From positions 1 to 64,000 of the IMG/VR virus record IMGVR_UViG_3300012952_000020: DNA of 64,000 bases; one strand, given 5' to 3'. Origin of the DNA: a virus. The notes below the pieces were generated by a model. The model had not been told where the DNA came from. It was given only the letters and a program-made list of their open reading frames with translations, and searched no databases. Shown here one piece after another: positions 8,263 through 63,211 of the stretch (positions are counted from its first letter, which is position 1; each line of letters opens with the position of its first letter). The position numbers and the translations under genes are program-made.

Positions 8263-8300
8263 AAAAAAGGCCCATAAGTGCCGAAACACCTATGGACCTT
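8263..8300 (-). terminator. Intrinsic terminator ending the early operon
   Basis: AAGGTCCATAGGTG-TTTCGG-CACTTATGGGCCTT then TTTT. Confidence 0.8.
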
Positions 8301-8343: not shown

Positions 8344-8760
8344 CTACTCGTTCGCCTCTTGTTCGCCTGCGCTCTCGCCTGCTTCGGACGCTTCCTCGGG
8401 TTCCGGCAACTCGTCTACCAAATCCGAGGGATCGGCTGGCTCCAGTTCCTTGGGCATGTTGTCGAAGGCCAGCGCCACCGCCTTCATCACCTCATCCACC
8501 TCGCCGTTCCAGTCAATCTGCAACTTGGACTGTGGGTGTTCGTGACTGGGGTAGGGCCAGAAGACCTTGAAGCATGACCATTTCTTGAACCAGCAGATGC
8601 TCGCCGCAGCGAACGGATTGTCGTCCGTCTTGCGCCGAATCACCATGTGGGGAACGCCCTTCTTGGACAGCATACAGCCGAAGCTATAGCCAGCCTCCAG
8701 AAGTGGCTCCGTTAGACTCTTGTAAGCCTCGAAACGTGGATCGTTGATACTTGCTCTCAT
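8344..8760 (-). CDS. Hypothetical protein with acidic tail
   Basis: AAGGAG RBS before ATG 8760. Confidence 0.7.
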   Translation of the reverse strand: MRASINDPRFEAYKSLTEPLLEAGYSFGCMLSKKGVPHMVIRRKTDDNPFAAASICWFKKWSCFKVFWPYPSHEHPQSKLQIDWNGEVDEVMKAVALAFDNMPKELEPADPSDLVDELPEPEEASEAGESAGEQEANE

Positions 8761-8808
8761 GCGACTTTCTCCTTTCCTGACACCGGGAGCCGCCGCCCCC
8801 GATGGGTG

Positions 8809-8854
8809 TGAGGTAGAGATCACATGCCTATGAATGACCGTGACCTCTACCTCA
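8809..8854 (-). other. 15-bp intergenic RNA hairpin
   Basis: TGAGGTAGAGGTCAC-N16-GTGATCTCTACCTCA (one G-U pair). Confidence 0.6.
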
Positions 8855-8861
8855 ATCCTTA

Positions 8862-9191
8862 TCACATCAGGCCCATCTCCATCAACATCGTCCGTTGATC
8901 CTGACGCCACTGGTTGTCCCTCTCCGCTGTCGGGTACGCGGCTACTATGAGCCTCCCAGCCTCGGATTCGGATCGGGCCTTCATACGGCGACCATCTGGC
9001 ATCCTTGCCTCGTAGCAGACCGAGTAGTCGGTTCCAACACCGCAGGAGCAAGCGTGCCATTCCCTGACTACAACCACGTCTGCGAACTCGACCTCTCCGT
9101 CTTCGTCCTCGATGATGTACCGTTCCCGATTATCGGGCAACTCAAAGCCGTGATCAACCACCTCATACCCTCTACAATCCTCGCAAGCCAT
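8862..9191 (-). CDS. Hypothetical protein (CxxC and CxC motifs)
   Basis: GGAG RBS; MACEDC...HACSCG. Confidence 0.65.
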   Translation of the reverse strand: MACEDCRGYEVVDHGFELPDNRERYIIEDEDGEVEFADVVVVREWHACSCGVGTDYSVCYEARMPDGRRMKARSESEAGRLIVAAYPTAERDNQWRQDQRTMLMEMGLM

Positions 9192-9393
9192 GTCGTTCTC
9201 CTTTGTGTGCGAGCGGGGCATTTACCCCACAGTTGTTCGTAACAAATCCGCTGGTAGATCCAGTCTCCCCGAAGCCTCGCTCTACGAAAGCGTCCCAGCA
9301 CCAACGCCCTCTCTGCCTCTGTGACTGCGTGTTGAACCGTCGTGCATCGACAGGCAACCTCGCCGCAACTATCGTCCCACCTTTCCATGTCAT
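9172..9393 (-). CDS. Hypothetical protein
   Basis: GGAGG RBS and ATGA coupling; alternative frame 9068-9388 possible. Confidence 0.4.
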   Translation of the reverse strand: MTWKGGTIVAARLPVDARRFNTQSQRQRGRWCWDAFVERGFGETGSTSGFVTNNCGVNAPLAHKGERHGLRGL

Positions 9394-9896
9394 GCCTCCC
9401 CGACGTGGGGAGCGTGCGCCAAGTACAACAAAGCCAACGCATCAGCCGAGAAGTCCTCTGGAGACAGCGACGAGCGTAACTGTTGGAGCCTTGCGACTGT
9501 CTCCGGCAGGAGTTCATCGACGAATGTGGGGTCCAGCAACAGCAACTTGAGTATCCCTACCTCCGTCAACTTCCAGACCGGATACTCGACATGACCAGAA
9601 CCTATCTCAATCCCTGTGTCCTCGAACCAGCCTGTCTCTACCAACTGACCGGCTACCTTCCCCCACCGTTTGCCCCAGTCCGTGACCTTCATGATCAAGC
9701 CTGCGTCGGGGAGCGGAGGAAACAGATCGACGTTGACCGTCAACCGACTGTAGGGAGTACCGTCCGGCGACCATGCCATGAGAAGCAGACAGTGTGGAGA
9801 CTCGACAAAGCGACCAATCTCCAAAGTGACCTTCTCCCCATCCAACTCTACCTCACCGAAGACCATGCTCCGGGTTCTTCCAAGTTGCCTTTTCAT
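9390..9896 (-). CDS. DUF4313-like protein
   Basis: PYSRLTVN ... TGIEIGSGHVEYPVWKL pattern. Confidence 0.6.
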   Translation of the reverse strand: MKRQLGRTRSMVFGEVELDGEKVTLEIGRFVESPHCLLLMAWSPDGTPYSRLTVNVDLFPPLPDAGLIMKVTDWGKRWGKVAGQLVETGWFEDTGIEIGSGHVEYPVWKLTEVGILKLLLLDPTFVDELLPETVARLQQLRSSLSPEDFSADALALLYLAHAPHVGEA

Positions 9897-10468
9897 GACT
9901 TGCCCTCCGCTGACCAAGCGCCACTCAGCCCAAATGCTTCCGGCTCGTCAGGGACGAACCAGCCGTGCTCACACAGTGCGTCAAAGATTGCCTCGTCCGT
10001 GGGCGAGATTCCGTGGTAGCTCCAATCCAACTCTCGGCCCAATACGATGTGGTCCACTTCCTCGTGAACCTCTCCGTCGTGCTTGTACGCTACCCGCTGC
10101 AACTCCTGACCCATGTGCTCCGAGTGGATCTCCCATTCCCTGCGGGAGTGGTCCTCGTCATCCAGCACCGGGTAGTTAGCCAGTGCCGCCTCGATTTCCT
10201 CTGCCACCTTTGCCGCTGGTGTGTCCGGCTTGACGATGATGATCTCAAACCAGCCACAGCCCCAGTGGTTGAACGAGTGCTCCTCGTAGTCCTCGCCGGG
10301 AGAATCCTGCTCCAGCATCCTGATTGCCGAGTCGTAGTTTGACTGAGCCAGCACCTCCGAATCCCGATTTCTTCCGACCGGGACGACCAACCAATCCTGT
10401 CGGTCGTGGAGCGAAAGCCCCGCAACGTCGAACCCTGTAGGTCTGAACTGTTTGTACGTTTCCATCAT
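9893..10468 (-). CDS. Conserved phage hypothetical protein
   Basis: RDSEVLAQSN, HWGCGWFE, NYPVLDDEDHS motifs; GGAGG RBS. Confidence 0.7.
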   Translation of the reverse strand: MMETYKQFRPTGFDVAGLSLHDRQDWLVVPVGRNRDSEVLAQSNYDSAIRMLEQDSPGEDYEEHSFNHWGCGWFEIIIVKPDTPAAKVAEEIEAALANYPVLDDEDHSRREWEIHSEHMGQELQRVAYKHDGEVHEEVDHIVLGRELDWSYHGISPTDEAIFDALCEHGWFVPDEPEAFGLSGAWSAEGKS

Positions 10469-10614
10469 GCACCTCCCTTGGATTCCGCTTCCTCGATTGC
10501 CTCGATTGCCGTCCACTTGATGACCCCGCACTTGAGCACCGGGTCGGTGGGGCGAGTCGCTTCCGCGAGGATTTCCTTCAACGCTTTCAACAGCTTCCTT
10601 TCCAACGCAGTCAT
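10465..10614 (-). CDS. 49-aa hypothetical protein
   Basis: MTALERKLLKALKEILAE...; GGAGG RBS; coupled at both ends. Confidence 0.55.
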   Translation of the reverse strand: MTALERKLLKALKEILAEATRPTDPVLKCGVIKWTAIEAIEEAESKGGA

Positions 10615-11072
10615 CACTCACCTCCCGTCTGCGCCATCGTCGGTGCGTCCAGAATGTCACTCGTATCGACTTTCACATCGCCGTAAAGCCAGCCCATCGC
10701 CCGCTTCATGATCTGTGCGTCTGCCCTGACAATAGCCCCGATGCTAATGCCAAAAACCCTGTGGGTAACGTCCCGATCCCACTGGGAGAAGAACGCATCC
10801 GTGTTGGGAATCTCCGCAGGGTTTCCTCCCTCCGGTCCTGCGTGGCACTGCCTCGGGGCGTGAGTAGCCTCGTAGCAACGCAGGTCTGCCCTGCTCAACA
10901 GGACCGTATCAATGTCCAGCCCTTCGTGCATGACTGGTGTTTGCGTGGCGATTGAAACCTGACGGTTATCCATCTGAAAGACGATGTTCGCCGTCTTCCC
11001 CCACGGTGTGACTATTGGTTGGTGTCCAAAGACCTTCCAGCCCTTGCTCTCATTCGACTCTGATTCTGACAT
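10614..11072 (-). CDS. Hypothetical protein
   Basis: GGAGG RBS before ATG 11072. Confidence 0.7.
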   Translation of the reverse strand: MSESESNESKGWKVFGHQPIVTPWGKTANIVFQMDNRQVSIATQTPVMHEGLDIDTVLLSRADLRCYEATHAPRQCHAGPEGGNPAEIPNTDAFFSQWDRDVTHRVFGISIGAIVRADAQIMKRAMGWLYGDVKVDTSDILDAPTMAQTGGE

Positions 11073-11110
11073 AATGTCCTCCCGGCCTGCGCCGTTCGTT
11101 GGTGGGAGTC

Positions 11111-11142
11111 GGTGAACCGATACACCATTGTACCGATTCACC
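11111..11142 (-). other. 14-bp intergenic RNA hairpin
   Basis: GGTGAATCGGTACA-ATGG-TGTATCGGTTCACC (two G-U pairs). Confidence 0.6.
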
Positions 11143-11155
11143 TTTCCCTTGTTTG

Positions 11156-11611
11156 TCAAGTACCTCGTTCCAAGACCTTGACCATTTCAGCTTGACCATC
11201 CTCATGCTTGACGCATCCGATGACCGTTCCATGTCGGAACTCGAACTCGGTTCCGTCCGACAGATTGTGCCGGATCTTGTCCTCGCTGTTGAACGGGACG
11301 TATGCGAGCAGGTTCCTGACTCCGGTAGAATCCTCTACCACCATCTTCGCCGCTCCCCACTTCAACCCGTTTTCCTTCGGGTCGATGTCCTCTGACGCAA
11401 AGTACGCTCCGAGGAAGTGACAGAACTCGCACCGAGCCTCCGGGTTGACCAGATACTTCGGGAGCAACGGGGTGCCTCGATCTCCGGGGTGTCTGCCCTG
11501 TTTCTTGATGACGATGGTTCCAGTTTCCTGACCACAGGCACCGCAGGCTTCCATGAACGGATGACCGACTGGTGCGCGCATGAAATCCTCTTGGGTTGCG
11601 TAGTTATTCAC
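11156..11611 (-). CDS. Hypothetical zinc-finger protein
   Basis: CGAC and CEFC motifs; GTG start. Confidence 0.65.
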   Translation of the reverse strand: MNNYATQEDFMRAPVGHPFMEACGACGQETGTIVIKKQGRHPGDRGTPLLPKYLVNPEARCEFCHFLGAYFASEDIDPKENGLKWGAAKMVVEDSTGVRNLLAYVPFNSEDKIRHNLSDGTEFEFRHGTVIGCVKHEDGQAEMVKVLERGT

Positions 11612-11789
11612 CTCGCACCCCCTCGACCTTCCGCTTCGCCAAAATGTCCTTGAGCGTAGCCTCGGGTCCGTAGACCTCAACCATCTGATTCAACAGGTTC
11701 GACACGTCCTTGGCTTTGCCTGCCATCCGCATGGACCGAAGCCCCATGTCTACCTTGACCCTTCCTCGTCCGTTGCGTGACTCAGCCAT
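11604..11789 (-). CDS. Hypothetical protein
   Basis: 61 aa; AGGAGG RBS. Confidence 0.6.
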   Translation of the reverse strand: MAESRNGRGRVKVDMGLRSMRMAGKAKDVSNLLNQMVEVYGPEATLKDILAKRKVEGVRGE

Positions 11790-11985
11790 TGGACACCTCC
11801 TTGGCTTGCGCCTCGCTGCGGGAAACGTCAGCGGTCTTGACTGCGTACTGCATACCGCCTTCTCCGCATCGCTTCACCTTTACGGTGTCACCGGGTACGA
11901 ATCCCTCGTTCTCCAACCTTGACCTATGCTCGCTGGCTTCCGCGTACGAGTTGTAGGTCGCCTGAATCTTCCATGTTCTACTCAT
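11782..11985 (-). CDS. Hypothetical protein
   Basis: AGGAGG RBS before ATG 11985. Confidence 0.65.
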   Translation of the reverse strand: MSRTWKIQATYNSYAEASEHRSRLENEGFVPGDTVKVKRCGEGGMQYAVKTADVSRSEAQAKEVSNG

Positions 11986-12026
11986 GGTTTCCTCCTGCCT
12001 TTCGGCGTTCACTGAATCGGGTGTCT

Positions 12027-12094
12027 GCCTCGTCAGCACCGGGGTAACAAATCCCCGATGTACCCGTCGCCTCCTTGGGACGACGAGTTTCGGC
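12027..12094 (-). ncRNA. Hammerhead ribozyme, type II (HHR-1)
   Basis: gcc GAAA CUCGUCGUC-loop-GGCGACGGG UA/ CAUCGGGG-loop-CCCCGGUG CUGACGA ggc: full core, three stems; predicted cut after 12061 (GUA). Confidence 0.85.
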
Positions 12095-12102
12095 TATGGT
12101 TT

Positions 12103-12378
12103 CTACGATTGCTTGAAGTACAGGATCTTCCAATCCGAGTCAGGTTCCGTCGCCTTGGACAGCCACCGCTTCAAGGTCTGCTTTTGCACACCCATCATGT
12201 CCGATGCCATGTCCAAGTTGCCGCCCTTCGCCTCGATGTGGTTGAGAGCACCGATTGCCCTCTCCCGCTGATACTGGGTGTAGCTGATCCTTCTCGCCAC
12301 ACCGTTCAGCCTTCGTGCGTGTCCGTGCATTTCAATACAGATCGCAATCACCTCGTCGCCGGACAACTTCTTACTCAT
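12103..12378 (-). CDS. HTH-containing protein
   Basis: NLDMASDMMGVQKQTLKRW helix-turn-helix pattern. Confidence 0.6.
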   Translation of the reverse strand: MSKKLSGDEVIAICIEMHGHARRLNGVARRISYTQYQRERAIGALNHIEAKGGNLDMASDMMGVQKQTLKRWLSKATEPDSDWKILYFKQS

Positions 12379-13060
12379 CGCCGCCTTCCTCTACCGCTGG
12401 GTGCCTTGCAGCATCCTCGATAGCCTGACGTTGTTCCTCGATCCGAGCCTTGATTGCCTCCTGTTCTTCACGAACCTCCCAAGGAGGACGTTTCTCAGCC
12501 CGACGCCAATCGTGCTCCCAGCCAGCCCGCATACCCAAAATCGTCTCCTTCGGTACTGCGTGCTCCGTTCGCTCTGCGAGGTCGTGAACCGACAGCCCGC
12601 CGTCCAACATGTCCAAGACGTGAACTCGAACCTCGTGGGCATCTGCCAGTCGGAAGTACGGCTCCATTGTCCACCGCTTGTCGAACGTGTTGTGGACGAC
12701 GATGAGGTCAGCCTTGTTCTCACCAAACAGTCGGTCCACCTCGTCAGCGCACCAGCGATGAGCCTTACCGAGAAGATGACCGCTCCAGCGATACTCGACC
12801 TCTCCGTAAGACGCTGGGTCAAGCCGCTGGTCGTACTGATCCGGGTCTTCGATTGTTGCCATCTGACTACGGCGAACATCAATCACCGGGTCGTCATCCT
12901 TCAACCGCTTCTTCAACCCTTCCGGGGGTGTGCCTTTGTACAGGCACATGTAGTCATCCGCTGACCGCATGAACCTTCGGTCGTTGTCTCCGCAGATCAA
13001 CCTCGCCATTGAGGTCTTTCCTGATCCGCTCAATCCTCTCAACAATATCAACGTCTTCAT
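12371..13060 (-). CDS. P-loop kinase (AAA_33 / N4BP2-like, polynucleotide-kinase type)
   Basis: LILLRGLSGSGKT, SADDY, VVHNTF, HAVPKETI. Confidence 0.8.
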   Translation of the reverse strand: MKTLILLRGLSGSGKTSMARLICGDNDRRFMRSADDYMCLYKGTPPEGLKKRLKDDDPVIDVRRSQMATIEDPDQYDQRLDPASYGEVEYRWSGHLLGKAHRWCADEVDRLFGENKADLIVVHNTFDKRWTMEPYFRLADAHEVRVHVLDMLDGGLSVHDLAERTEHAVPKETILGMRAGWEHDWRRAEKRPPWEVREEQEAIKARIEEQRQAIEDAARHPAVEEGGDE

Positions 13061-14112
13061 ACTTTCTCTCCGATTGTGTGACTGCCGACGGCTCTCGCAC
13101 TGTCGATGGTGCAGTCCTGTTGTTGTTTATCCTGATGCCACTCTACAAAGTTGGGGTGACGGACGGCACCGTTGGGAAAGACTCCCTTTCCGTTCACCTT
13201 GAATACCCTCCCGACGAACTTGCCGGGATTGTCAAACATCTCCGTTCGCTGTGCCTCGGTCAAGCCGGAAACGCGAACCGCCTCCTTCAACTCTCCCTCG
13301 ACGTACAGACCTCCGATGACTGACTTGACCATGCGCCCCTTGTACTTGTCTGCGTTGCTCTGCCGGAATCCCATGCAGACATAATCGACTTCGTACGTGC
13401 GCTTGATTCTCGCCCAGCCCTCTCCGAAGGGTGCCGATCCCTCTTTCAGAATCAGCCCCTCCCAATCCTCTGCCAGAACCCAATCAGCCCAGATTCGCTG
13501 TACCAAGTCCGTGATGCCCTCGTCCCGAGAAGTCCTCCACTGCGGTATGCACTGGATTCGACCTCGCGACGTGACCGACAGGGGATTCGGTGACGAGTGG
13601 GTCGCAATCGACGGAAGCCCCGCTGACGGCTTGCCGAAAACAACCTGCTCCAGAAACGCCCGCCGTGTCCATTGGGGCTTGTCTCGGAAACACTGCCCTC
13701 CGAACTCCACCAAGTCGAAGGCCATGAACTGACCTGTCAACTTTCGCCGCTTCGACCAGTTGGTGCCGAACATGAACTCCCCGTGAAGCACGATCCGACT
13801 CCCGCCGACTGCGTACCCCGTGTCGTCCTCTCCCGAGTCCCGAAAGTAGCCCCAAGGACTGAATGGGACCGCCAGCTTGAACTCATCCTTCAAGGTTCCG
13901 TTTCGGGAGTAGACCTTGACCGAGGTTCCCTCAATCACCATCTGCCCCCAGATGCCATCGCCTTTCAACTCAACGACGTTCCAAGGTGGCTCCGGGTTGC
14001 CCTTCCACTGGAGGACGCTCTGCCCTGCCGCCTCGTACTTGAATCGTACGTTGGTGAACTTCGGACGGTTCAGAACCATCCCCTCGTAGACCTTCTGCTT
14101 GGTTCCCATCAC
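13057..14112 (-). CDS. ATP-dependent DNA ligase
   Basis: Motif I ELKGDG, LHGE, AFDL, EGLILK, OB-fold C-terminus with RHP. Confidence 0.85.
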   Translation of the reverse strand: MMGTKQKVYEGMVLNRPKFTNVRFKYEAAGQSVLQWKGNPEPPWNVVELKGDGIWGQMVIEGTSVKVYSRNGTLKDEFKLAVPFSPWGYFRDSGEDDTGYAVGGSRIVLHGEFMFGTNWSKRRKLTGQFMAFDLVEFGGQCFRDKPQWTRRAFLEQVVFGKPSAGLPSIATHSSPNPLSVTSRGRIQCIPQWRTSRDEGITDLVQRIWADWVLAEDWEGLILKEGSAPFGEGWARIKRTYEVDYVCMGFRQSNADKYKGRMVKSVIGGLYVEGELKEAVRVSGLTEAQRTEMFDNPGKFVGRVFKVNGKGVFPNGAVRHPNFVEWHQDKQQQDCTIDSARAVGSHTIGEKV

Positions 14113-14534
14113 TCACCTCCTTCGACTGGTCGTCGGTACTCGGTGGGGAGTTCCACGACCTCCCCGTCATTTGTGACGCCGAGGTGCTCGTGCTCGTTCT
14201 CCCCTCCCCAGTCATTCAAGTCCTCTGCAATCTCCGGGATCGTGAACATCACGTTTGCCCGAACAGCGCCGTTGCTTTCGGGGTCCATCGCCGTGATGGT
14301 CCTTGCCCCGATGTACCCGTCGTACCTCGCCAGCGCCAAACTGTCGTTCTCACCTTCCAGCAACTCCCGCATACGCTCTGCGAGCCTTGCAACGGCGATG
14401 CCCATGTCCGTCAGACGTTTGCGTGGGGAGTAGTCGAGGAAGTCCTCACCGCACTCCGTAAACTCCCCACTCATTTCATCGACCAGCCTATCGACCATGA
14501 TCTCAATGTCCTCTCGTTCCAAGTTGCTACTCAT
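14109..14534 (-). CDS. Hypothetical protein
   Basis: 141 aa, translationally coupled. Confidence 0.65.
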   Translation of the reverse strand: MSSNLEREDIEIMVDRLVDEMSGEFTECGEDFLDYSPRKRLTDMGIAVARLAERMRELLEGENDSLALARYDGYIGARTITAMDPESNGAVRANVMFTIPEIAEDLNDWGGENEHEHLGVTNDGEVVELPTEYRRPVEGGE

Positions 14535-15265
14535 TTCGCACCTCGCTTGCCGAACGCCTGCTCGACTTCTTCCTGTGACTCAAACCGTTTGAGGACCATT
14601 TGGGTCAACGTACCCTCTGGCGTGATTGCCGCCTCCGTCAGACTCTCTTTCAAGACTTGAAGGAACGGTGTGCTCGCTATCCGGGCAACACCGTTAGCCT
14701 TGTTCGCCTTGGCACAGTGCTCCGGGTCTTCCGTCGAGAACCACGTACGGCAGTTCCAAGGACGGTGCTCGTAGACTGAACAGGCACCATCGACCAACAG
14801 TGGACAGGGCGTGTTCGATGCCTGCGCTTCCCTGAACATCGCCTTCGCCGTGCGCTTGTCATCCTTCTCCAGCATCCTTCGGACATGCCGTGGACCGAAC
14901 AACGCTTTTCGGAAGTAACCTTCCTTGTCCTTGATTGGCGACTGCCCAGCGAACCGTTCCATCCACTCTGACATGTTGTCCTTGACCCGAAGACGAACTG
15001 GCTCCGGCAGGTTGTGGATTGCCACCGTCAGGACAATCGCCTCTGCCGGATTGATCTCGACGCGCTCGTAGCAACAGGCTGTGCAGCCTACGCCGAGGCA
15101 CTTGATTTCCGAGAGGCTTCCGTCTGCCTTCATCCTCTCGACCATACGGTCTGCCTGTTGAAACAGACCCATCACGAACTCGTAGACACGCTCCGTGATG
15201 TCCTCTCCGTCTGGTCCTTCGACCAGCGGCTTGCCGCCCACTCGGGGCATAATCAACTCATCCAT
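14531..15265 (-). CDS. YkgJ-family cysteine-cluster protein
   Basis: CLGVGCTACC ... CPLLVDGACSVYEHRPWNCR. Confidence 0.85.
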   Translation of the reverse strand: MDELIMPRVGGKPLVEGPDGEDITERVYEFVMGLFQQADRMVERMKADGSLSEIKCLGVGCTACCYERVEINPAEAIVLTVAIHNLPEPVRLRVKDNMSEWMERFAGQSPIKDKEGYFRKALFGPRHVRRMLEKDDKRTAKAMFREAQASNTPCPLLVDGACSVYEHRPWNCRTWFSTEDPEHCAKANKANGVARIASTPFLQVLKESLTEAAITPEGTLTQMVLKRFESQEEVEQAFGKRGAK

Positions 15266-15524
15266 TGGACACTCCTTTCAGTCCGGCTTGCTCGATGCTC
15301 GCCATCTTCCTGTTGAACTCGACCTTGGTGATGTGGGTTCCGATTGCCGAGCGCACGGTCAAGAAGATGCGCCAAGGTGTCATACCGAACTCGATGGTTG
15401 CCTGATCTACGAGATTCACCAGCGCCCTTGTTTGCTCGTCGGTGGAGCAGGGCCAAGCGAACCTCAACCAATCTCCGAACGTCGGGGCCTTGCCCAACGT
15501 CGGTTCCTTGTGTTTCGTACTCAT
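15258..15524 (-). CDS. Hypothetical protein
   Basis: GGAGG RBS, ATGA coupling. Confidence 0.6.
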   Translation of the reverse strand: MSTKHKEPTLGKAPTFGDWLRFAWPCSTDEQTRALVNLVDQATIEFGMTPWRIFLTVRSAIGTHITKVEFNRKMASIEQAGLKGVSNG

Positions 15525-15925
15525 GCTGTCCTCCACTGCACTGTGGAGCGGAGCCATTTCCAAAGCCGGATGTACCAAGGGAGCCTGACGACCAGCGGTG
15601 CCGGGTGCGTCTTGCTCTCCTTCCACTCAAGGAACGGGACGCCGGGATCGACTCTCCTATACATGGCGTACTCCCTGCGGAGCATCGCCGTTCGACTGAC
15701 CGTTCGGTACGACCAGCCTCCGTTGCCGTGGTACTTGCTCCACCCGTGTTGGGGAATACCGACCTGCAACCCAGCCTTGACGCACATGTCCCATACGCCT
15801 GACTTGGTTCGCCGTTGTCCTCCAGGTCCAGTGCTGGTGACTGGACCGAACACGAATGAACCGTCCTCCAACTCCGTCAGCCAAGGGATGCCTGTGTTCG
15901 TTGGTTCTCCAGTAGCCGCCCTCAT
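15521..15925 (-). CDS. Hypothetical protein
   Basis: 134 aa, coupled. Confidence 0.6.
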   Translation of the reverse strand: MRAATGEPTNTGIPWLTELEDGSFVFGPVTSTGPGGQRRTKSGVWDMCVKAGLQVGIPQHGWSKYHGNGGWSYRTVSRTAMLRREYAMYRRVDPGVPFLEWKESKTHPAPLVVRLPWYIRLWKWLRSTVQWRTA

Positions 15926-16116
15926 TGGACACCTCCCTTCTCCAAGTCACGCTTGTAGGACTGTGCCTGCATCCGTGAGCACCCACTGACGATGGGTCGG
16001 GCTTCTCCGTGAAAGACAACCCCTCGGTGTCCTTTGGGGAGATCCGACTTGCGGAAGACCGCCCAACTGTAACTGTCATCGCCATTGAACTTTCGCAACG
16101 TGTATGCCGGTTTCAT
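15922..16116 (-). CDS. Hypothetical protein
   Basis: MKPAYTLRKFNGDDSYSWAVF...; coupled. Confidence 0.6.
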   Translation of the reverse strand: MKPAYTLRKFNGDDSYSWAVFRKSDLPKGHRGVVFHGEARPIVSGCSRMQAQSYKRDLEKGGVQ

Positions 16117-16343
16117 TCGACACCCCCGTTCTGCTCGACGTAGCACTCCTCGTACGCTGCCTTGTGACCTTCGTACGTGAAGTTGACTCCTGCATCTTCC
16201 AGCTTCGCCGTGGCACAGTCGTAAGCCGACCACCAGCGAGCCTCCTTTGCCGGTTGCGCTACCAGAATCCAGTAGCCCAATCCGACAACCACGATGGCTG
16301 CAAAGAACAGCCCTGCCAACAGTTCCTTTGTGCGCTCGCTCAT
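16113..16343 (-). CDS. Small membrane protein
   Basis: N-terminal hydrophobic helix. Confidence 0.65.
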   Translation of the reverse strand: MSERTKELLAGLFFAAIVVVGLGYWILVAQPAKEARWWSAYDCATAKLEDAGVNFTYEGHKAAYEECYVEQNGGVE

Positions 16344-16600
16344 GCTTCACCTCCACCGAAATACTCTGTGGAGTAGGTGACGATCCAAGGAGCGTTGCCC
16401 GCACCTTTCTGCATCGCCTTGTAGATGCACGTTTCACCGAGGAACGCGACGATGGTTCCTGCGTCCTTGTCGTGCTCGACCTTGAAGCCCTCAAGCCACA
16501 CCATGTGCTTCACGAGGTCCATCACCTCCTTGTGGGTTCCGAGGCACGAACGCCTTGGGCGTACTGGACTGTTTGCAAATCCTTTTACTGCTGCTTCCAT
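16340..16600 (-). CDS. Hypothetical protein
   Basis: GGAGG RBS. Confidence 0.65.
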   Translation of the reverse strand: MEAAVKGFANSPVRPRRSCLGTHKEVMDLVKHMVWLEGFKVEHDKDAGTIVAFLGETCIYKAMQKGAGNAPWIVTYSTEYFGGGEA

Positions 16601-16655
16601 TTTACTATCCTCCGTCCTCTCGGACTTCTTCGGGTAGGTTTACCCTTGTTTGTCA

Positions 16656-16721
16656 ATGACCTGTCTCATCAGCACGGGGAGGTCATCTTCCGTGGACTCC
16701 CCCCGAAGGGGGAGTTTCGAC
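16656..16721 (-). ncRNA. Hammerhead ribozyme, type II with pseudoknot (HHR-2)
   Basis: guc GAAA CUCCCCC UUCG GGGGGAG UC/ CACGG..AUGACCU..CCGUG CUGAUGA gac AGGUCAU; loop I pairs 7 bp with the 3' tail; cut after 16695 (GUC). Confidence 0.92.
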
Positions 16722-16723
16722 TG

Positions 16724-18112
16724 TTACTTCTTCCGCTGCTGCAACAGGTGAATCATCGCCTGCGTAGCAAGGTCCAACTGCCGACGCTCATGGGCAACGT
16801 CACCGTCATCCCCTGCGAGGTGAGCGACCTCGTGGAACATGACCTCGATGGTGTCTGCCAAGTTGCCGACCGTCTTCCGACTCAGGCAGATGACCTTCTC
16901 CCCTGACTTGAAGGTGCCTCGCACATCATCACCCTCGAACTCCACGACGTTCACATGTGAGAGCACGTCGTACTCGAAAGTGTCCGTTGCGTCCGTTGCC
17001 TGAATCAACCTGCACGCATCGTCGATGTTCTCCTGCTCCTGATCCGTCAGGTCATCCCAACTGTACGTCTGCGTGACCGTCATCCTCCCGTCCCGCTTGG
17101 CGAGGTGGAAGCCTTTGATCCGGGTGTCCTGCTCCAGAACCTCCAATCGGCTTCTGCCTACCACAACGCCCTTCTTGCCAACGTGTGCCAGCTCCTTGGC
17201 TTGGGACAGGTTCTCAACTGGAACTGCGCCTTCACCGTGCTTCCCGAGGAACCGATCTCCGATGTGCTTGACCACTGTGGAATCGTTGACGAAAGCGTAA
17301 GCCTGCTGCGCCTCCATCGCATTGGGATTGTCCAGCACCGCTTCGACGTGATCCCCGAACTCATCCGGCTCATCCCTGAAAGCGGCGACGGTCAGCTTGC
17401 CCAGCGCCCACTTCAAATCCCACTCGTCCACCAACTCACGGTCACGATTGGTTGCCCGTCGGAGGTCGTACCCGTAGGACAGATTGTCCGGTCGCTGCAT
17501 CACCAGCACGCCCTTGTTGAAGATCATGCCCTTGAACTCAGGCTGGAGTAGAATCCGCTCGCCCTCGTACCCGACCGTCTTCACCTTCTCCGGGTCGAAC
17601 GCCTCGTTGGTGAACAGGAACCGATTGCGGAGAGCATCGTACTCCTCCTGCGATACCCCGTACACCTTGACCAAGAACCCTTCACGCGGGTTCTTCAACT
17701 TTCGTGTACGGATGTGGAGCGTGTGACAGTCGAGGTCGCCGTGATGCCTAATCTCGGGAATCCACTGCTCGTCCATGTTCCGAATCACCATGTGGTATCG
17801 GCTCGACCGAGCGATGGTCAACATCGCCATCGGCAGTCCCTCTCCGAACTCACCAATCAGGTTTGCATCACTGCGGGAACCCGAATGGCCCATCGCCATC
17901 GCCTCTGCCGGAACCTTGATACCGAAGTTGTAGATGTTGACGCAGCCGACGAATCCCTGATGCTCCTGCTTCGGGTGAAACTCGACTTTCAGCTTGCCGA
18001 GTCCGTCATGCCTGCTCTCCTCTCCGTCCTTGCCGTTCGCCATCAACTCTCGCAGTGCGTGGTTGATGTTCCATCCCGGCTGATAGTTCATATCCAGTGT
18101 CGTCTTGATCAT
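16724..18112 (-). CDS. GHKL (HATPase-like) ATPase with C-terminal HExxH metallopeptidase-like domain
   Basis: RELMANGKD N-box, IGEFGEGL G-box, C-terminal MFHEVAH..H. Confidence 0.75.
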   Translation of the reverse strand: MIKTTLDMNYQPGWNINHALRELMANGKDGEESRHDGLGKLKVEFHPKQEHQGFVGCVNIYNFGIKVPAEAMAMGHSGSRSDANLIGEFGEGLPMAMLTIARSSRYHMVIRNMDEQWIPEIRHHGDLDCHTLHIRTRKLKNPREGFLVKVYGVSQEEYDALRNRFLFTNEAFDPEKVKTVGYEGERILLQPEFKGMIFNKGVLVMQRPDNLSYGYDLRRATNRDRELVDEWDLKWALGKLTVAAFRDEPDEFGDHVEAVLDNPNAMEAQQAYAFVNDSTVVKHIGDRFLGKHGEGAVPVENLSQAKELAHVGKKGVVVGRSRLEVLEQDTRIKGFHLAKRDGRMTVTQTYSWDDLTDQEQENIDDACRLIQATDATDTFEYDVLSHVNVVEFEGDDVRGTFKSGEKVICLSRKTVGNLADTIEVMFHEVAHLAGDDGDVAHERRQLDLATQAMIHLLQQRKK

Positions 18113-18168
18113 GCTACTTTTCCTCCGTCCGTACCCTCCCCTCGGAGGGTGTTGGACTTCTATGGTTA

Positions 18169-18230
18169 CTCCCCTGTCTCATCAGTACAGGTAGGGGAAA
18201 CTTCCTGTAGACCCCGTTAGGGGTTTCGAC
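18169..18230 (-). ncRNA. Hammerhead ribozyme, type II with pseudoknot (HHR-3)
   Basis: guc GAAA CCCC UAAC GGGG UC/ UACAGG..UUCCCCU..CCUGUA CUGAUGA gac AGGGGAG; 7-bp loop I/tail pairing; cut after 18210 (GUC). Confidence 0.92.
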
Positions 18231-19258
18231 TATTTCTTGCTCGCCTTGCGCCTGATGTACTTGGCGTTCGCAGCCACTCGCTGCGACCTCGACTTCTTCT
18301 CGACCTTGACCGTTTCCTTCGCCACTCGAATCTTGGCTCCTGCGCCCTTCTCGATTGCGAAAGCGTGTGCCTTCGCCTCGGCATCGGCTCCGGTGAACCT
18401 CCACCACTTCCGACCGCCCTTGACCTTCACCTCGTACCCGACGACCTTCTCGTACGTCTCCGTCGCTGGTCTGCGCTTGGGCAACGCCGACTGCCCCTTG
18501 GCATCTGCGTACCTTGCCCGCTTCCCACTGTGCCAGCACTTCTTGGGACCGACTCGCTTCTTGTGAGCCTCGACATCCTCGGGGGCGAAGAACTCTGCCG
18601 TTGCCACCAACCCTGTCGTCTTCTTGCTCCAGTCCCACACGGCTGGGAGGACTGCCAACTTCCTTCCCCACTTGTCGGTACGCCACTTGGGTTCGTTGAT
18701 GTTGTACTTGGGTACGTCTGCGGCTTCAATAACTGGGATGCGTACGAACACGATGGCGGGTGACTCGCAGGCGACCACGACCTCCAGAATGTACTTGTCA
18801 GCACCGGGCATCCGACTGATTCGGTGGGCGAAGTCCTTTCGGAAGTAGTCCTTGACCACGACCCACCGGCTACCGAGAAGGCACTTGTTTCCGCTCACCG
18901 TATCGGCAACCTTCTCCGTGCGCTTCGCCCTCGCAGCCTTCTTCCGACGACGGGTTGCTGTGGCCCGCTTCGCTGCTGACCGTCGGACCTTCTTCATCAC
19001 GAACTTCTCAGCCTCGGTGTACACCTCGTCCTGCGTGTCGTGGTCTGCCTTGTTCACTGCGGCGACTGCTGCGGTGACCAACTGGTAGAATGTTTCCTCG
19101 TCCCTGTCGGGATTGCACTTGGGGTCGTTCTCGTTCGCCTTGTGGAACTTCGCACCCCACTTGGCGATCCACTTGTTGTGTCGCTCCGTGGGGGTCACGC
19201 CACGGGAGGTGGTCTGGTCAGTCCCCAAACCGGGCATTGAGTTTCCGAGGCCGATCAT
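18230..19258 (-). CDS. Lys/Arg-rich hypothetical protein
   Basis: 342 aa, GGAGG RBS. Confidence 0.75.
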   Translation of the reverse strand: MIGLGNSMPGLGTDQTTSRGVTPTERHNKWIAKWGAKFHKANENDPKCNPDRDEETFYQLVTAAVAAVNKADHDTQDEVYTEAEKFVMKKVRRSAAKRATATRRRKKAARAKRTEKVADTVSGNKCLLGSRWVVVKDYFRKDFAHRISRMPGADKYILEVVVACESPAIVFVRIPVIEAADVPKYNINEPKWRTDKWGRKLAVLPAVWDWSKKTTGLVATAEFFAPEDVEAHKKRVGPKKCWHSGKRARYADAKGQSALPKRRPATETYEKVVGYEVKVKGGRKWWRFTGADAEAKAHAFAIEKGAGAKIRVAKETVKVEKKSRSQRVAANAKYIRRKASKK

Positions 19259-19431
19259 GCTGCACCTCCACCGCCGACGATTGAATCGTACCCGGCGAGG
19301 TATCCGACGCTGTGGTCCTGTCGCTGCTTGCCAGCTTCGGCATCCTGTGCGCCCTTGGCGTAGTCCTCGTTCCAGTTTTCAACGAGTGGCGAACTCGGTG
19401 TCGGGAACTTGATTGTCAACTGCTGTGTCAT
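19255..19431 (-). CDS. 58-aa hypothetical protein, first gene of the early operon
   Basis: MTQQLTIKFP...YAKGAQDA...GYLAGY; AGGAGG RBS. Confidence 0.6.
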   Translation of the reverse strand: MTQQLTIKFPTPSSPLVENWNEDYAKGAQDAEAGKQRQDHSVGYLAGYDSIVGGGGAA

Positions 19432-19509
19432 TCGATCCTCCTGCCTTTCGGCTTTCTACGGTTTTCATAGAGACTGCGTCTTTATCTCTTTCTCAATCTC
19501 TATATATAT

Positions 19510-19538
19510 AATATAGCATGTTTACAGGGGTTTGTCAA
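19510..19538 (-). promoter_or_regulatory. Strong sigma70-type promoter of the early operon
   Basis: TTGACA-N17-TATATT with TG extension; A-rich upstream. Confidence 0.8.
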
Positions 19539-38358: not shown

Positions 38359-39099
38359 CTAACACCCGTCAGGTGTAAGGTCACGAAGCCTCCGAGTCAT
38401 TGACTCTACTCTGGAGGTGTACGTTTCATTGTCCACGCACCTGTTACCCTGATTGTAGTGACAGATGCCTTTCCTTCTGTCCCGTAGTCTACGGATGAAC
38501 CTCGCACATACGCCTGCGGAATACTCTACGCTTTGTAGCTCCGCGCACTCGTCAGCGACGGTCCTTCCAGAATCTCGTAGCCAACTCCGATTGCCGGTGT
38601 AGCCATACGAATACTTTGCCTGCTGTTGAAACATCCCGCACGACCTTCCTTGGTCGCCAGTGACGTTCTCCGTCCACCGGCTCTCGACATACCCAACTGC
38701 TGCCAGTTCGTATACGTCAACACCTTCGTACAAGGCTGCGAGGATCATCGCCGCTGCGAACCTGCGAGCGTCCTCCAACTCCAACCTCGGTTGGACCTCC
38801 TGCATGGCGTTAGCCAAATAGTACACGTAGTCCCTGACTCCTGCCTCATGTGCAGGGATGGACGTGTCTACGCAGCACTCTGGACACTTAGCACAGTGGT
38901 CCTCGACGTAGCGTTGATGCCAGTTCTCCTGCTCCGGGTCAGGCTCCGGTTCGGAAACTGGTTCCGAGGTGGGTGCCTCTGTGGTCGGTTCGGGAGGACT
39001 CTCCGGTTCCTCGCCTCCGCAACTGCCAAGGTAGCTAATGATGCCTACCGTCAACCCTGTCACTATTCCGTACACAAAGTACCGTGCTATCGCCTTCAT
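38359..39099 (-). CDS. Membrane-anchored/lipoprotein lytic transglycosylase (SLT-like)
   Basis: Hydrophobic N-terminus ending LGSC, Pro/Glu linker, VESRW, GMFQ, HYN. Confidence 0.65.
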   Translation of the reverse strand: MKAIARYFVYGIVTGLTVGIISYLGSCGGEEPESPPEPTTEAPTSEPVSEPEPDPEQENWHQRYVEDHCAKCPECCVDTSIPAHEAGVRDYVYYLANAMQEVQPRLELEDARRFAAAMILAALYEGVDVYELAAVGYVESRWTENVTGDQGRSCGMFQQQAKYSYGYTGNRSWLRDSGRTVADECAELQSVEYSAGVCARFIRRLRDRRKGICHYNQGNRCVDNETYTSRVESMTRRLRDLTPDGC

Positions 39100-55305: not shown

Positions 55306-55953
55306 CTATCTTCCAGTACGCTGGAAGTGCATATCATCAGCCGTTCTCCAACGCCCGCCCCATGTCCAACCGGCATCCTCAAAAACGTGCACAAAGTTCA
55401 TGCTCGTTTCATCTTGACGGAGCCTCGTCCCTTCCTTCTTACCGTAAGGGTTGAGTTTCCAATCAATGTCGAACGCGATTCCCCAAGAGTGGGTAGACAG
55501 AGACTTAGATGGATTCCACATAGTGTGTCGAGGCACGTACATACCGATCTTGGCAGGTGTGTACTCCGACAGTCGGCACGCTTCTTCATACAAGCGCACC
55601 ATTTCATCCGCTACAGCACGGTGGCACGAAATACGTTGACCAGTGTGCAGCTTTACACGAACGATATTCGCACGAACCCACTTCGGGTCGGGAATGATCC
55701 GACCCCCGTGACCCTCGCGCCATTCAAACGCACCGTAGACCCGAGCAATATCATCCCGCTTACCACTGGGGATGGGACACTCACCTTGGATGGCTTTGTC
55801 CACTGCACGGAGAGTGATCGGCCCTGCAAGACCATCGACCGTAAGCCCGAACTCCTCTTGGATAGCCCGAGCGCCACGTTCGATGATGTACATGTGTTGG
55901 GCTGGTGACCAGTCCTCTACTTTCTTTGCGTTGTAGTCAAACGGTTTTGTCAT
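55306..55953 (-). CDS. Endolysin, M15-family peptidase with PG-binding motif
   Basis: GLTVDGLAGPIT; STHSWGIAFDID; WGGRW..DDMHFQ. Confidence 0.9.
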   Translation of the reverse strand: MTKPFDYNAKKVEDWSPAQHMYIIERGARAIQEEFGLTVDGLAGPITLRAVDKAIQGECPIPSGKRDDIARVYGAFEWREGHGGRIIPDPKWVRANIVRVKLHTGQRISCHRAVADEMVRLYEEACRLSEYTPAKIGMYVPRHTMWNPSKSLSTHSWGIAFDIDWKLNPYGKKEGTRLRQDETSMNFVHVFEDAGWTWGGRWRTADDMHFQRTGR

Positions 55954-56878: not shown

Positions 56879-59800
56879 CTACTGATGGCCCAAGATGTGG
56901 AATGTCTCAAGAGCCTCTCCGTGGTGTTCTCCAGTAGCATCCTCACCGTAGGACGGACGCTTCTCGTTCGGACGGTTCACCTCAACAGTAGCGTTGATGT
57001 GGCAACCACTGAACGGTGGGTTCACGTTATTCGGTACTGTTCCGTTGATCATCCGCTGTCCGTATCGCCCTGTGTATAGCACGAACAGAATCTCATGATC
57101 TCCGGGTGCGGTCAACTCCTCCACTGTGGGCATCTGATCCATCAGTGTTCCAATGTCGCCTTCCTCATCCAGACCATGTGCTGCTGCGTTCTCTCGGACG
57201 TACCTCAACTCGGACACCAGATCGATCTCGATGCCACAGTTGTTCTGCAACCTGTCCGTTTGAGCAACCTTGACCAGCGCACCATCACCGACACCGTGTT
57301 GGGTGTCCTGATAGGTGGCAGAGGCAAAGTCGAACGGGTCAGCGACATAGCAGTCACCGTGTGGCGCATTGGCGAACTCGTTATTGGCGAACTCTGCTGC
57401 ACTCACATCCGTTTCCGTCATCGGGTCGGTATCGTACAAGTACCCGGATGATGCAGGGACTCCCTCAACGTAGCCGCCGAGGTTGTCACTGATCATGGGG
57501 TACAGGTGGCCGGTGTACGCGTGATTGGGGTGGGCGTTGAATGGACCACCCCCACCGCCAGCAGCCGGGTGGATAGACTGGAAGTGAAGGAACGGCTTGT
57601 CTTCCATAGTGTCGGGTGCTGTGGGCCACTGGACCGCAGAACCGTTCTGCCTATCTCGGACAAGAAACAACTCCGTGAGGGATTTGGGAGCACTCGAACG
57701 ACGAGTGTTGGGGTGTCCACCGCCTTGATAGGACGGGGAGTAACCACCACCGGGGCGAGCATGAAGGACGCGGAAAGAACAGTTCCAAAGTAGCTTTTGC
57801 GCCAGACCCGCATTGAACAACGCAGTGTACGTGTTCATCAGGGGTTGCCACTCTACATCAGCAGTTCCGTTCCACGCAGCCTGCACCTCATGTTCCATTA
57901 GCTGGAAGGCATCGTGACAGGTGTTGCGGGGATCGCCGTCTTCAAGTGTAGACGGTACTGTGTCGAAGCCGTTTGGCAGGTTGGTGCCTGTCTTCCAATC
58001 GAACGAACCCATCGAGAACGTGAGTGGGTTTGCGTAGAAGGTACGAGCGCCATCGTAGCTGGAGTCGAGCACGATACCCGTACCAGTGTCACCGATGAAC
58101 TGCGTATCCACGTCGAAGTCAGGCCCTTGGCCGGGGATTGCGTTTCCGGGTCCGTCAAGCATGTCGCCGTTGAACTCTGAATCGTCATCATCAGACACAG
58201 ACCAAGGGGAGGTGGCATCCCAAGTCAGCTTCAACACATCCGCTGCTTCCATAGCATCACAGATAGCGGCCAAGGTCGTGGTGCCAATCTTGGCACGCAT
58301 GACCGGAGCCTGCCAGTCGTAAGCTGACCGTGCGAACAGTTGGTTGTCGTCGGGGAACCCGATGTAGCCACGGTTGTAGCCTTGAGTGCCTTGACCAAAT
58401 CCAACGCCAGTGTAGTACGGACCAGTTGCTTCCGCTGCGGAGTACCAGTTGTTCTGGATCTCCACAATCTTGTCGATGAGCGGGAAGCCTTTGAACAAGT
58501 CCTCTCCTTCGGAGGACGACGGGTGGGTACGGAACACGGGATGTAGATCCCACATATCGCCGCCCGTGTTCTCCGAGTAGTACCCCGAGTCGTCGTAGTA
58601 AATGTCACCGGAGTTCTCGCCCTTCAAGTACCACTTGAACGCAGGCATGAACGTAGGACCGGGCTTACCGTAGACACTGAATCCGGGGTACGCAAGCTGA
58701 CTCGTCACACCGTCAGGAACAAACGGGAACGCTGCCAGATTGTTCGGGACTGTGATAGTCGCCCCATCCACGTTGACCGTACCAGAGTACGTTGTAGACG
58801 CCGTGCCGGGGTTGGTGTTGTGATTACCAAGACGAGGAATCTGCGACCATAGCTGCGTCGTCCCCAGTTCGTTTGATGACGCGAAGTCGTCCAGACCCCA
58901 GTAGTCCAAATCGTTTACCGATTTCAGACCTTGTGTGGATGACTGCTCACCCAAGAACTGATCCGTGGGTTGCGTCGTGATCGTGGGGATAATCAGTGAC
59001 CGCTCACCCCATCGGTTGTAGACGGGATAGGCTACGCCATCAAACTGTGGGTAGGAATCCGCGCCGCCGAACAGGGAAGCGTTCTCGTCCCAGTCACCGT
59101 GAGGGAACCTAATGGATTCCATGAACGGGTGATACCAGTGGACGAATGGTTGGAACGCATCGGGGATCGGAGTGTCGCGCCAATCTCGGTCGCCAATCTC
59201 CAAAGCCACGTTGGGGTCCATTGTTCCGAAGGCTGCGTTTTCGCCGCTGTTACCTCCGGGTTGCCCGAGGTCCGGTGACGTAGCGATGATCTTGGGAAGA
59301 CCGTCCTCATCAATCAGGTTCTCCGTAATCCACTCCAAGTTGACTCGTTCAATGAACGAGAGCAGCCCGTCAAGCATGGACATTCGACCTTGCAGGACGT
59401 TGTGCTGGTGCTTGGGCAGGGTTGCCCAGTGCGTCAGAGACAACGGTTCAAACCGAACGAACAGGTTGAGAGTGTCAACCAAAGCGTTGGTCTTTGTGCC
59501 TGTGGGAGCACCGTCAGCGTCCAGCGTTTCGGGGCCGGGATAGTAGTCGCCAATGTGATAACGAAGGCGAGCCACGGTGCATCGGTTCTCCCATGTGTCG
59601 AGTGGGTTCACCTCGTCCGTGGGGAGAGTAGGGAACCGGCCCCAAGGACCAGCTTCCATATCCATACGCACGTCAGCCTCGATAACGTCCTGATTCACGT
59701 CTGCGGGGTTTGACACATCCGCTACGTTGATAGCGTGATGACCCCAACGGATCAGATCGTTAGCCTCCAGACCTTCGCCCGGAGTTTCATCAGCGTCGCC

Positions 59801-63158: not shown

Positions 63159-63211
63159 TATCTGTATCTCCTAATCATGTTTCACTTGGTTTGTCAATAA
63201 CCGTGTCACGC

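Follow-up and report, generated by a model that had tools for sequence, protein, structure and literature searches.

Three type II hammerhead ribozymes lie between the gene blocks of an operon in an uncultured marine phage and probably process its transcript

Three type II hammerhead ribozymes, termed HH1, HH2 and HH3 in the following, are located on the coding strand of one operon in IMGVR_UViG_3300012952_000020, a linear IMG/VR virus record of 77,536 bp with a CheckV completeness estimate of 78%, whose first 64 kb represent the stretch of DNA analyzed here (the window). We consider it likely that they are functional ribozymes, which divide the RNA of the operon into four messages during its transcription and thereby uncouple the decay and the translation of the respective gene blocks. 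The record was found in one sequencing run, which is labelled as marine metagenome, and belongs to an uncultured phage. Its long open reading frames are nearly all encoded on the minus strand, i.e. the coding strand, and all features described below are located on this strand unless indicated otherwise.

The ribozymes were identified with the Rfam model Hammerhead_II (RF02276, gathering cut-off 37 bits) and with a descriptor that combines GAAA, the A15.1-U16.1 pair, UH and CUGANGA with minimum lengths of 2 bp for stem II and 4 bp each for stems I and III. Both approaches place HH1 at 18231..18168 (29.5 bits), HH2 at 16722..16655 (40.1 bits) and HH3 at 12095..12019 (34.7 bits), which confirms the three type II hammerheads that an initial annotation, made from the sequence letters, had proposed at these positions. 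The RF02276 alignments are full-length in all three cases (model positions 1-66), and in the resulting topology stem II is open, while a loop closes each of the other two stems. In the whole-genome search 16 candidates were scored and three matched (E = 3.1e-8, 7.9e-7 and 1.9e-5), and the two ribozymes with a bit score below the gathering cut-off reach E-values of 8e-7 (HH3) and 2e-5 (HH1). The match of HH1 was seen in searches of small regions and of the whole genome, whereas it was dropped by the speed filters when stretches of 8.3 kb and 64 kb were searched. Applied to both strands of the 77,536-bp genome, the descriptor returned exactly HH1, HH2 and HH3, and it returned no match in 50 mononucleotide shuffles. 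Neither RF02276 nor the descriptor revealed a fourth hammerhead on either strand of the 77.5-kb genome. Two spots near 55340 and 31452, which combine CUGANGA with an upstream GAAAC, fail the descriptor as well as the Rfam search. None of the other Rfam families stands out in the window at E <= 1: a fluoride riboswitch match on the plus strand (38984-39054), which lies inside a gene on its non-coding strand, is probably due to chance (22.9 bits vs a cut-off of 34, E 0.05), and a snoRNA match was likewise taken as chance.

The structures of the three ribozymes can be read directly from the sequence. The cores are intact, with CUGAUGA/GAAA/GUC in HH1 and HH2 and CUGACGA/GAAA/GUA in HH3, and positions C3, U4, G5, A6, N7, G8 and A9, G12, A13 and A14, the A15.1-U16.1 pair and H17 are present in all three. 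The core-adjacent pairs (10.1-11.1, 1.1-2.1 and 15.1-16.1) are Watson-Crick pairs throughout, either G-C or A-U. H17, after which cleavage is predicted, corresponds to C18210 in HH1, C16695 in HH2 and A12061 in HH3, and these sites coincide with the cut positions given in the initial annotation. Stem II comprises 3 bp in each ribozyme. HH1 combines a stem III of 5 bp with a stem I of 6 bp, HH2 a stem III of 8 bp, capped by UUCG, with a stem I of 5 bp, and HH3 a stem III of 10 bp with a stem I of 8 bp. In addition, loop I pairs with the tail in HH1 (UUCCCCU/AGGGGAG, 7 bp including one G-U) and in HH2 (AUGACCU/AGGUCAU, 7 bp, or 8 bp if a G-U is counted), and an equivalent of the latter pseudoknot was rare among shuffled tails (9 of 20,000). 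In type II hammerheads the tertiary contact usually consists of such a loop I/tail pseudoknot with 4 bp or more. Both ribozymes have the same architecture, i.e. a loop I of 12 nt and a tail helix that starts 1 nt past stem II, but the letters of their stems and pseudoknots differ. Stem III is kept in every nested fold of all three ribozymes, the loop I/tail pairings of HH1 and HH2 form helices in such folds, and the minimum-energy fold of HH3 is the hammerhead fold. Taken together, the three copies have nearly no sequence in common outside the core, yet the stems are perfect in all of them and long pseudoknots are retained in two, which implies purifying selection on structure.

It is hardly credible that HH1, HH2 and HH3 are chance look-alikes or dead relics, which no longer cleave. 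Such a reading could point to the two of the three ribozymes below the Rfam gathering cut-off and to the matches of RF02276 at E <= 10, which occur in 11 of the 14 control genomes as well. However, no control match reaches the cut-off, while E is 2e-5 or better here, the shuffled sequences contained no descriptor match, and all three ribozymes lie on the coding strand and in intergenic gaps. Moreover, all core positions and core-adjacent pairs satisfy the acceptance criteria of Perreault et al. (PMC3088659).

The operon, in which the ribozymes are embedded, has well-defined boundaries. It begins with a sigma-70-type promoter at 19538..19510 (TTGACA-17-TATATT with TG), which had been annotated as strong and indeed matches the consensus at 11 of 12 positions, and which carries the recurrent 9-mer TTGACAAAC. 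It ends with an intrinsic terminator at 8300..8267, a 15-bp stem followed by TTTTTT, and no strong internal terminator was found between the two elements. The transcript from promoter to terminator comprises about 11.2 kb, which the predicted cuts would divide into pieces of about 1.3, 1.5, 4.6 and 3.8 kb; the sizes stated in the initial annotation thus follow from the positions of promoter, cuts and terminator. Unit 1 consists of a 58-aa gene (19431..19255) and a 342-aa gene (19258..18230), which overlap in ATGA and for which no family was found, unit 2 of a single 462-aa gene (18112..16724, phrog_6077), unit 3 of about ten overlapping genes (16600..12103), and unit 4 of a run of small genes (11985..8344), the first of which encodes 67 aa. 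The hammerheads occupy three gaps of 117-123 nt between these units, whereas most neighbouring genes otherwise overlap by 1-8 nt. The gene map is crude and several starts are mis-set, e.g. that of a 76-aa gene at 16343..16113; it shows a few more apparent gaps of 83-106 nt, and the one that was checked (16340/16233) is due to a mis-set start.

Each ribozyme starts at the stop codon of the preceding gene, within the distance of about 10 nt that had been noted initially: the TAG at 18232-18230 overlaps the first bases of HH1, the TAA at 16726-16724 precedes HH2 with a gap of 1 nt, and the TAG at 12105-12103 precedes HH3 with a gap of 7 nt. If a hammerhead starts at the upstream stop, the cistron ahead of the cut stays complete and terminates in the stem III hairpin, and the predicted 3' tails past the stop codons accordingly measure 20, 29 and 42 nt, each with this hairpin at its end. 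The predicted leaders behind the cuts comprise 97, 94 and 75 nt and open with the stem I hairpin. A 17-mer including AGGAGGA is present only twice in the genome, in the first leader of the operon (19452-19436) and in the leader behind HH3 (12006-11990), which is that of the 67-aa gene of unit 4, and in both leaders it includes the Shine-Dalgarno site. A 10-mer including GGAGGA is found only behind HH1 (18130-18121) and behind HH2 (16617-16608). Due to these repeats, each would-be mRNA piece opens with one of two leader types.

Hammerhead cleavage generates a 2',3'-cyclic phosphate and a 5'-OH end. From the arrangement described above we infer that the operon RNA is cleaved, that this happens during its synthesis, and that RNA stability and gene expression are affected as a consequence. 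In detail, HH1, HH2 and HH3 would cut the RNA of about 11.2 kb starting at the 19538 promoter after C18210, C16695 and A12061 while it is being transcribed. The 3' end of each upstream piece, a 2',3'-cyclic phosphate, would then be located in the stem III hairpin 20-42 nt past the stop codon. Each downstream piece would open with the stem I hairpin, which bears the 5'-OH directly, and a leader of 75-97 nt containing a strong Shine-Dalgarno site would follow. The four gene blocks, which are translationally coupled, would thereby be converted into separate mRNAs, the decay and the translation of which would be uncoupled.

The 9-mer TTGACAAAC, which is part of the operon promoter, is a recurrent element of this phage. 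In the genome it is present in 26 copies on the coding strand vs 3 on the other strand; the copies on the coding strand include those at 63197, 52411, 50419, 46139, 45287, 42074, 37174, 25010, 19538, 16656, 11159, 8059, 7443, 7141 and 5007, and the wider consensus around the 9-mer approximates GTT(c/a)TTGACAAAC(a/c)a(r)GnnAA. Four sigma-70 sites with at least 10 of 12 consensus matches were found in the genome, all of which are located on the minus strand and carry TTGACAAAC. Most copies lack a good -10 element, and these are located 22-56 nt before start codons, e.g. 22 nt before the ATG of the polymerase gene. In the distantly related locus L004 the same 9-mer TTGACAAAC lies 17 nt ahead of TATACT three times, and for this reason we read it as a -35 element. 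Most likely, TTGACAAAC represents the promoter -35 element of this phage group, which is perhaps activator-dependent. Within the operon, one copy (16656..16648), which has no good -10 element, starts at the last base of the HH2 pseudoknot tail; the ATG at 16600 follows at a distance of 56 nt. Another copy is located inside unit 4.

Relatives of the locus were collected by means of the 462-aa protein of unit 2, for which 16 relatives with an identity of at most 51% were found. An alignment-based scan with these relatives yielded one viral and 24 metagenome loci, and hammerheads were identified in only two of the 25, L006 and L010. In L006 (44% identity) a hammerhead of 38.0 bits is located 14 nt past the stop codon of the 462-aa homologue, i.e. 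in the slot of HH2. L010 contains a homologous hammerhead of 39.8 bits, which is located one gene further upstream and overlaps the stop codon of a 533-aa gene, and between the two, stems I and III show compensatory changes. An exact 18-mer of this hammerhead lineage had no match in IMG/VR. The conservation of position, which the initial annotation had proposed to survey in related phages, is thus apparent in L006 for the slot of HH2, but it does not extend to L005 and the record behind L004, which are devoid of ribozymes.

A generic type II pattern matched at least 120 loci in IMG/VR, and 120 loci among the matches listed were surveyed. The descriptor identified 115 hammerheads in 69 of them, and 20 loci harbor 2-9 hammerheads on one strand. 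In the eight densest loci the Rfam cut-off confirms 21 hammerheads, among them eight in L142 and three each in L147 and L130. Dense same-strand arrays are present in L142, L130, L042, L050, L088, L122, L147 and L031, and L130 contains up to nine hammerheads in 4.3 kb according to the descriptor. A helix of at least 7 bp between loop I and tail is formed in 5 of 118 hammerheads, including HH1 and HH2, and in this survey the pseudoknots are all that sets the copies of the operon apart. Of 45 adjacent pairs within the arrays, 31 have an identical stem II, 28 agree at the start of stem III and 11 at that of stem I, compared with 16%, 13% and 5% of random pairs, respectively. Since stems III and I match as well, we attribute the likeness of stem II between neighbours to paralogy.

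Several observations weigh against the conclusion that the three ribozymes cut and thereby separate the messages of the operon. Only HH2 passes the gathering cut-off of RF02276; the search with Rfam models, which had been suggested as a check, therefore recovered all three hammerheads but left HH3 and HH1 below 37 bits. Stem III of HH1 consists of just 5 bp, and the HH1 pseudoknot was matched by 1,450 of 20,000 shuffled tails, so that of the two 7-bp pseudoknots in the initial annotation, both of which do pair, this one exceeds chance only modestly. For HH3, tail shuffling revealed no loop I/tail pseudoknot beyond chance, and because of this lack of a detectable tertiary contact its cleavage may be slow at cellular Mg2+ concentrations. 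As a promoter-like copy of TTGACAAAC adjoins HH2, unit 3 may have a start of its own besides the 19538 promoter. In addition, hammerheads are missing from the closest relatives that have the 462-aa gene. The genes of L005 (47% identity) abut without spacers and without a ribozyme, and no hammerhead is present anywhere in the 61.8-kb record behind L004, whose homologue is 38% identical and whose synteny with the window covers the part upstream of this gene. Based on this absence from L005 and from the whole L004 record, the ribozymes are patchy and dispensable in this phage group. Finally, whether a 5'-OH end is stabilizing or destabilizing depends on the RNases of the host; in Bacillus, for instance, the 5'-OH product of glmS is broken down by RNase J1.

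The uneven occurrence among relatives, with hammerheads in L006 and L010 but none in L005 or the whole L004 record, would be expected if the ribozymes were active but neutral or selfish passengers, i.e. leftovers of duplicating intergenic modules or cassette boundaries without a benefit for the phage. This would also agree with the arrays of other phages, in which neighbouring hammerheads resemble recent duplicates, and with the varying identity of the flanked genes described by Perreault et al. (PMC3088659). Nevertheless, we regard this explanation as unlikely, since the diverged copies of the operon keep perfect stems, two of them together with long pseudoknots, which implies purifying selection on structure, and since their placement exactly matches the borders between translationally coupled blocks, where strong leaders recur.

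The position next to a stop codon is not restricted to the operon described here. Among the surveyed phage hammerheads, 68 of 115 (59%) start -1 to +6 nt from a same-strand stop codon that terminates a frame of at least 60 codons, whereas 2.9% of 138,000 random positions meet the same criterion, and HH1, HH2 and HH3 follow this rule. Much of it is explained by tight gene packing together with the room that tail and ribosome site need downstream, and the median gap is indeed 3 nt upstream and 26 nt downstream of the surveyed hammerheads. A corresponding tally was not found in the literature searched, which did not extend to the supplements of PMC3088659, and the words 'stop codon' do not appear in the main text of Perreault et al. 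(PMC3088659). A further feature of this kind is a 7-bp hairpin at 16747-16721 (CUGUUGC...GUAACAG) just before HH2, which holds the UAA stop codon together with the two bases that begin the ribozyme, namely an A and the G of the 3' strand of stem II. There is no counterpart at HH1 or HH3, and a stop-codon lock as a common design was thus rejected, the hairpin being present at one of three sites.

These observations bear on the idea that cleavage is conditional, i.e. that it responds to a ribosome terminating at the adjacent stop codon, to Mg2+ or to a factor, and thereby tunes the ratio of joined and separated messages. All three hammerheads begin 0-7 nt past the stop, so that a terminating ribosome would cover the 5' arm, and the stop abutment of the surveyed phage hammerheads in excess of random positions as well as the hairpin before HH2 are compatible with such a control, as are the nested folds of HH1 and HH2, in which the loop I/tail helix prevails over stem I. 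On the other hand, the abutment is largely a consequence of tight packing, the hairpin is confined to HH2, and the loop/tail helix corresponds to the known type II pseudoknot and is not necessarily a competitor (PMC3088659). We therefore judge conditional cleavage to be improbable and favour cuts that separate the messages in the course of transcription.

The chemistry of the predicted ends raises a third alternative, namely that the internal pieces are closed to circular mRNAs, either via RtcB, via the reverse hammerhead reaction or via the P-loop kinase and the ligase encoded in the operon. A 2',3'-cyclic phosphate and a 5'-OH would fit such a joining reaction. In hammerhead-bounded circular RNAs such as viroid-like RNAs and retrozymes, the two ends of the excised RNA form one hammerhead again. 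Stem II is identical in HH1 and HH2 (GUC/GAC), and the ends of the 1,515-nt piece between them could therefore rebuild a complete chimeric hammerhead, the fold of which would set the 5'-OH of U18209 beside the cyclic phosphate of C16695. Unit 3 furthermore encodes an AAA_33 P-loop kinase (13060..12371) next to an ATP-dependent DNA ligase-like protein (14112..13057), and the structural neighbours of the kinase include the polynucleotide-kinase-type domains of N4BP2 and CNPase. The kinase and the ligase could be a pair for end healing and sealing, acting on DNA or RNA. The ligase-like protein contains the KxDG motif I and nucleotidyltransferase and OB domains and looks like an ordinary phage DNA ligase, and the kinase looks like a generic AAA_33 protein according to NCBIfam, Pfam and Atlas; neither had a match among solved structures by sequence.

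Several of these points count against circular products. The kinase lacks a phosphoesterase domain, which could open the cyclic phosphate, and the ligase resembles those for DNA. The stem II halves of HH2 and HH3 mismatch (GAC vs GCC), so the 4.6-kb piece would be without the geometry described above. A compatible stem II was found in 36 of 45 adjacent pairs of the surveyed arrays vs 28% of random pairs, but this was rejected as a sign of circles, since stems III and I are common to neighbours too and paralogy explains the likeness. The pieces of 1.5-4.6 kb are far larger than known hammerhead circles. Perreault et al. considered circular or spliced products and, in their main text, report none as detected (PMC3088659). 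Closure of the internal pieces is thus very improbable, and we see an equally slight chance that the 1,515-nt RNA between HH1 and HH2, with the GHKL-ATPase/HExxH gene of unit 2 and its own leader, is closed as a translatable circular mRNA. If true, this would be a circular mRNA from a DNA phage.

Besides the kinase and the ligase, unit 3 encodes a CxxCxxCC protein (15265..14531). Homologues of the 462-aa protein of unit 2 carry a GHKL ATPase domain (PF02518) in the N-terminal part and an invariant HExxH near the C-terminus, and distant homologues are present in many Vibrio, Pseudomonas and Pectobacterium phages. The best matches of this protein and of the ligase in cultured phages are below 33% identity. 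PHROG matches reveal three modules along the window, i.e. a replication module with DnaB, primase, polymerase, helicase and UvsX (39-49 kb), a queuine-tRNA-ribosyltransferase-like gene (20.4-22.0 kb), and terminase and portal (3.3-6.9 kb), whereas a 1,897-aa open frame at 56879-62572 has no PHROG family match at E <= 0.001. The operon is located between the DNA-modification module and the packaging genes, and its promoter is one of four similar ones, which does not bear out its designation as 'early' in the initial annotation. Megablast against cultured phages revealed no near relative of the phage, and close relatives were found neither in IMG/VR scans with single proteins (462-aa protein, terminase, polymerase) nor among GTDB genomes. 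The 462-aa protein of this phage is also recorded on a contig of 94,675 bases, compared with the 77.5-kb record analyzed here; a fuller copy of the genome therefore exists and may hold further ribozymes.

Cutting between cistrons is familiar from other systems. In the early mRNA of T7, the host protein RNase III cuts between cistrons and leaves 5'-phosphate and 3'-OH ends, and RiboJ is an engineered ribozyme insulator. The likeness of the operon to T7 processing and RiboJ is functional only, i.e. it is limited to a cut between cistrons and to hairpins at the new ends.

The closest known counterparts are the prophage hammerheads of Perreault et al., who described in 2011 that multiple hammerheads flank genes or gene blocks in prophages and proposed that long phage transcripts are processed to mRNAs of operon or gene length (PMC3088659). 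Three tandem arrangements cleave in vitro, and the triple of A. tumefaciens also cleaves in E. coli (PMC3088659). The assumption of the initial annotation that only single hammerheads were known from phages is therefore wrong, and the self-processing operon, while plausible in view of the well-placed ribozymes, is not a new idea: the role proposed here is the one already published for clustered phage hammerheads (PMC3088659). Like the triples in the prophages of Agrobacterium tumefaciens, Azorhizobium caulinodans and Clostridium scindens, the operon contains several same-strand hammerheads between genes or blocks, two of which (HH1 and HH2) show the loop I/tail pairing described for type II hammerheads, and has the same proposed role in cutting a long phage RNA (PMC3088659). 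Specifically, three coding-strand hammerheads flank gene blocks within one transcription unit. In contrast to these triples, the operon is part of an uncultured marine phage contig without an integrase seen in the window, its blocks are larger (1.3-4.6 kb) and its copies are strongly diverged.

Two other cases are similar in part. HHphage of the haloviruses HF1/HF2 also lies within a polycistronic phage transcript, which is an early one and in which a 5' end was mapped at most 3 nt from the cleavage position, but it is a single variant hammerhead of an archaeal virus, which is located 13 nt before a start codon and shows a high salt dependence (PMC3088659). Olzog et al. (2021) demonstrated by cyPhyRNA-seq that three type II hammerheads are active in vivo in Desulfovibrio vulgaris (PMC8782182). 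These are likewise found near phage-like genes, and the method captures the ends predicted here, although the D. vulgaris hammerheads occupy three separate genome locations and those described here a single operon (PMC8782182). A paper on RNA viruses from 2026 treats the hammerheads of DNA phages as already known and sets them aside (PMC13725137).

The three hammerheads are hence an ordinary new example of an arrangement that has been known since 2011 and is common in sampled phage DNA, and the locus adds no new principle. According to a review from 2019, processing of polycistronic RNA has been suggested and the purpose of hammerheads needs more work (PMC6765202). With the purpose of bacterial and phage hammerheads still under debate (PMC6765202), the locus offers a clean test case, since it combines one strong sigma-70 promoter and one strong terminator with three diverged ribozymes exactly between coupled blocks. 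A small general point is that the type II hammerheads of sampled phage contigs usually start at the upstream stop codon. The IMG/VR arrays share this start at or just after a stop codon with the operon, as well as the Rfam family and the location on the strand of the genes. They are mostly denser, with about one hammerhead per small gene and neighbours like recent duplicates, whereas the three copies described here are 1.5 and 4.6 kb apart and are followed by long leaders.

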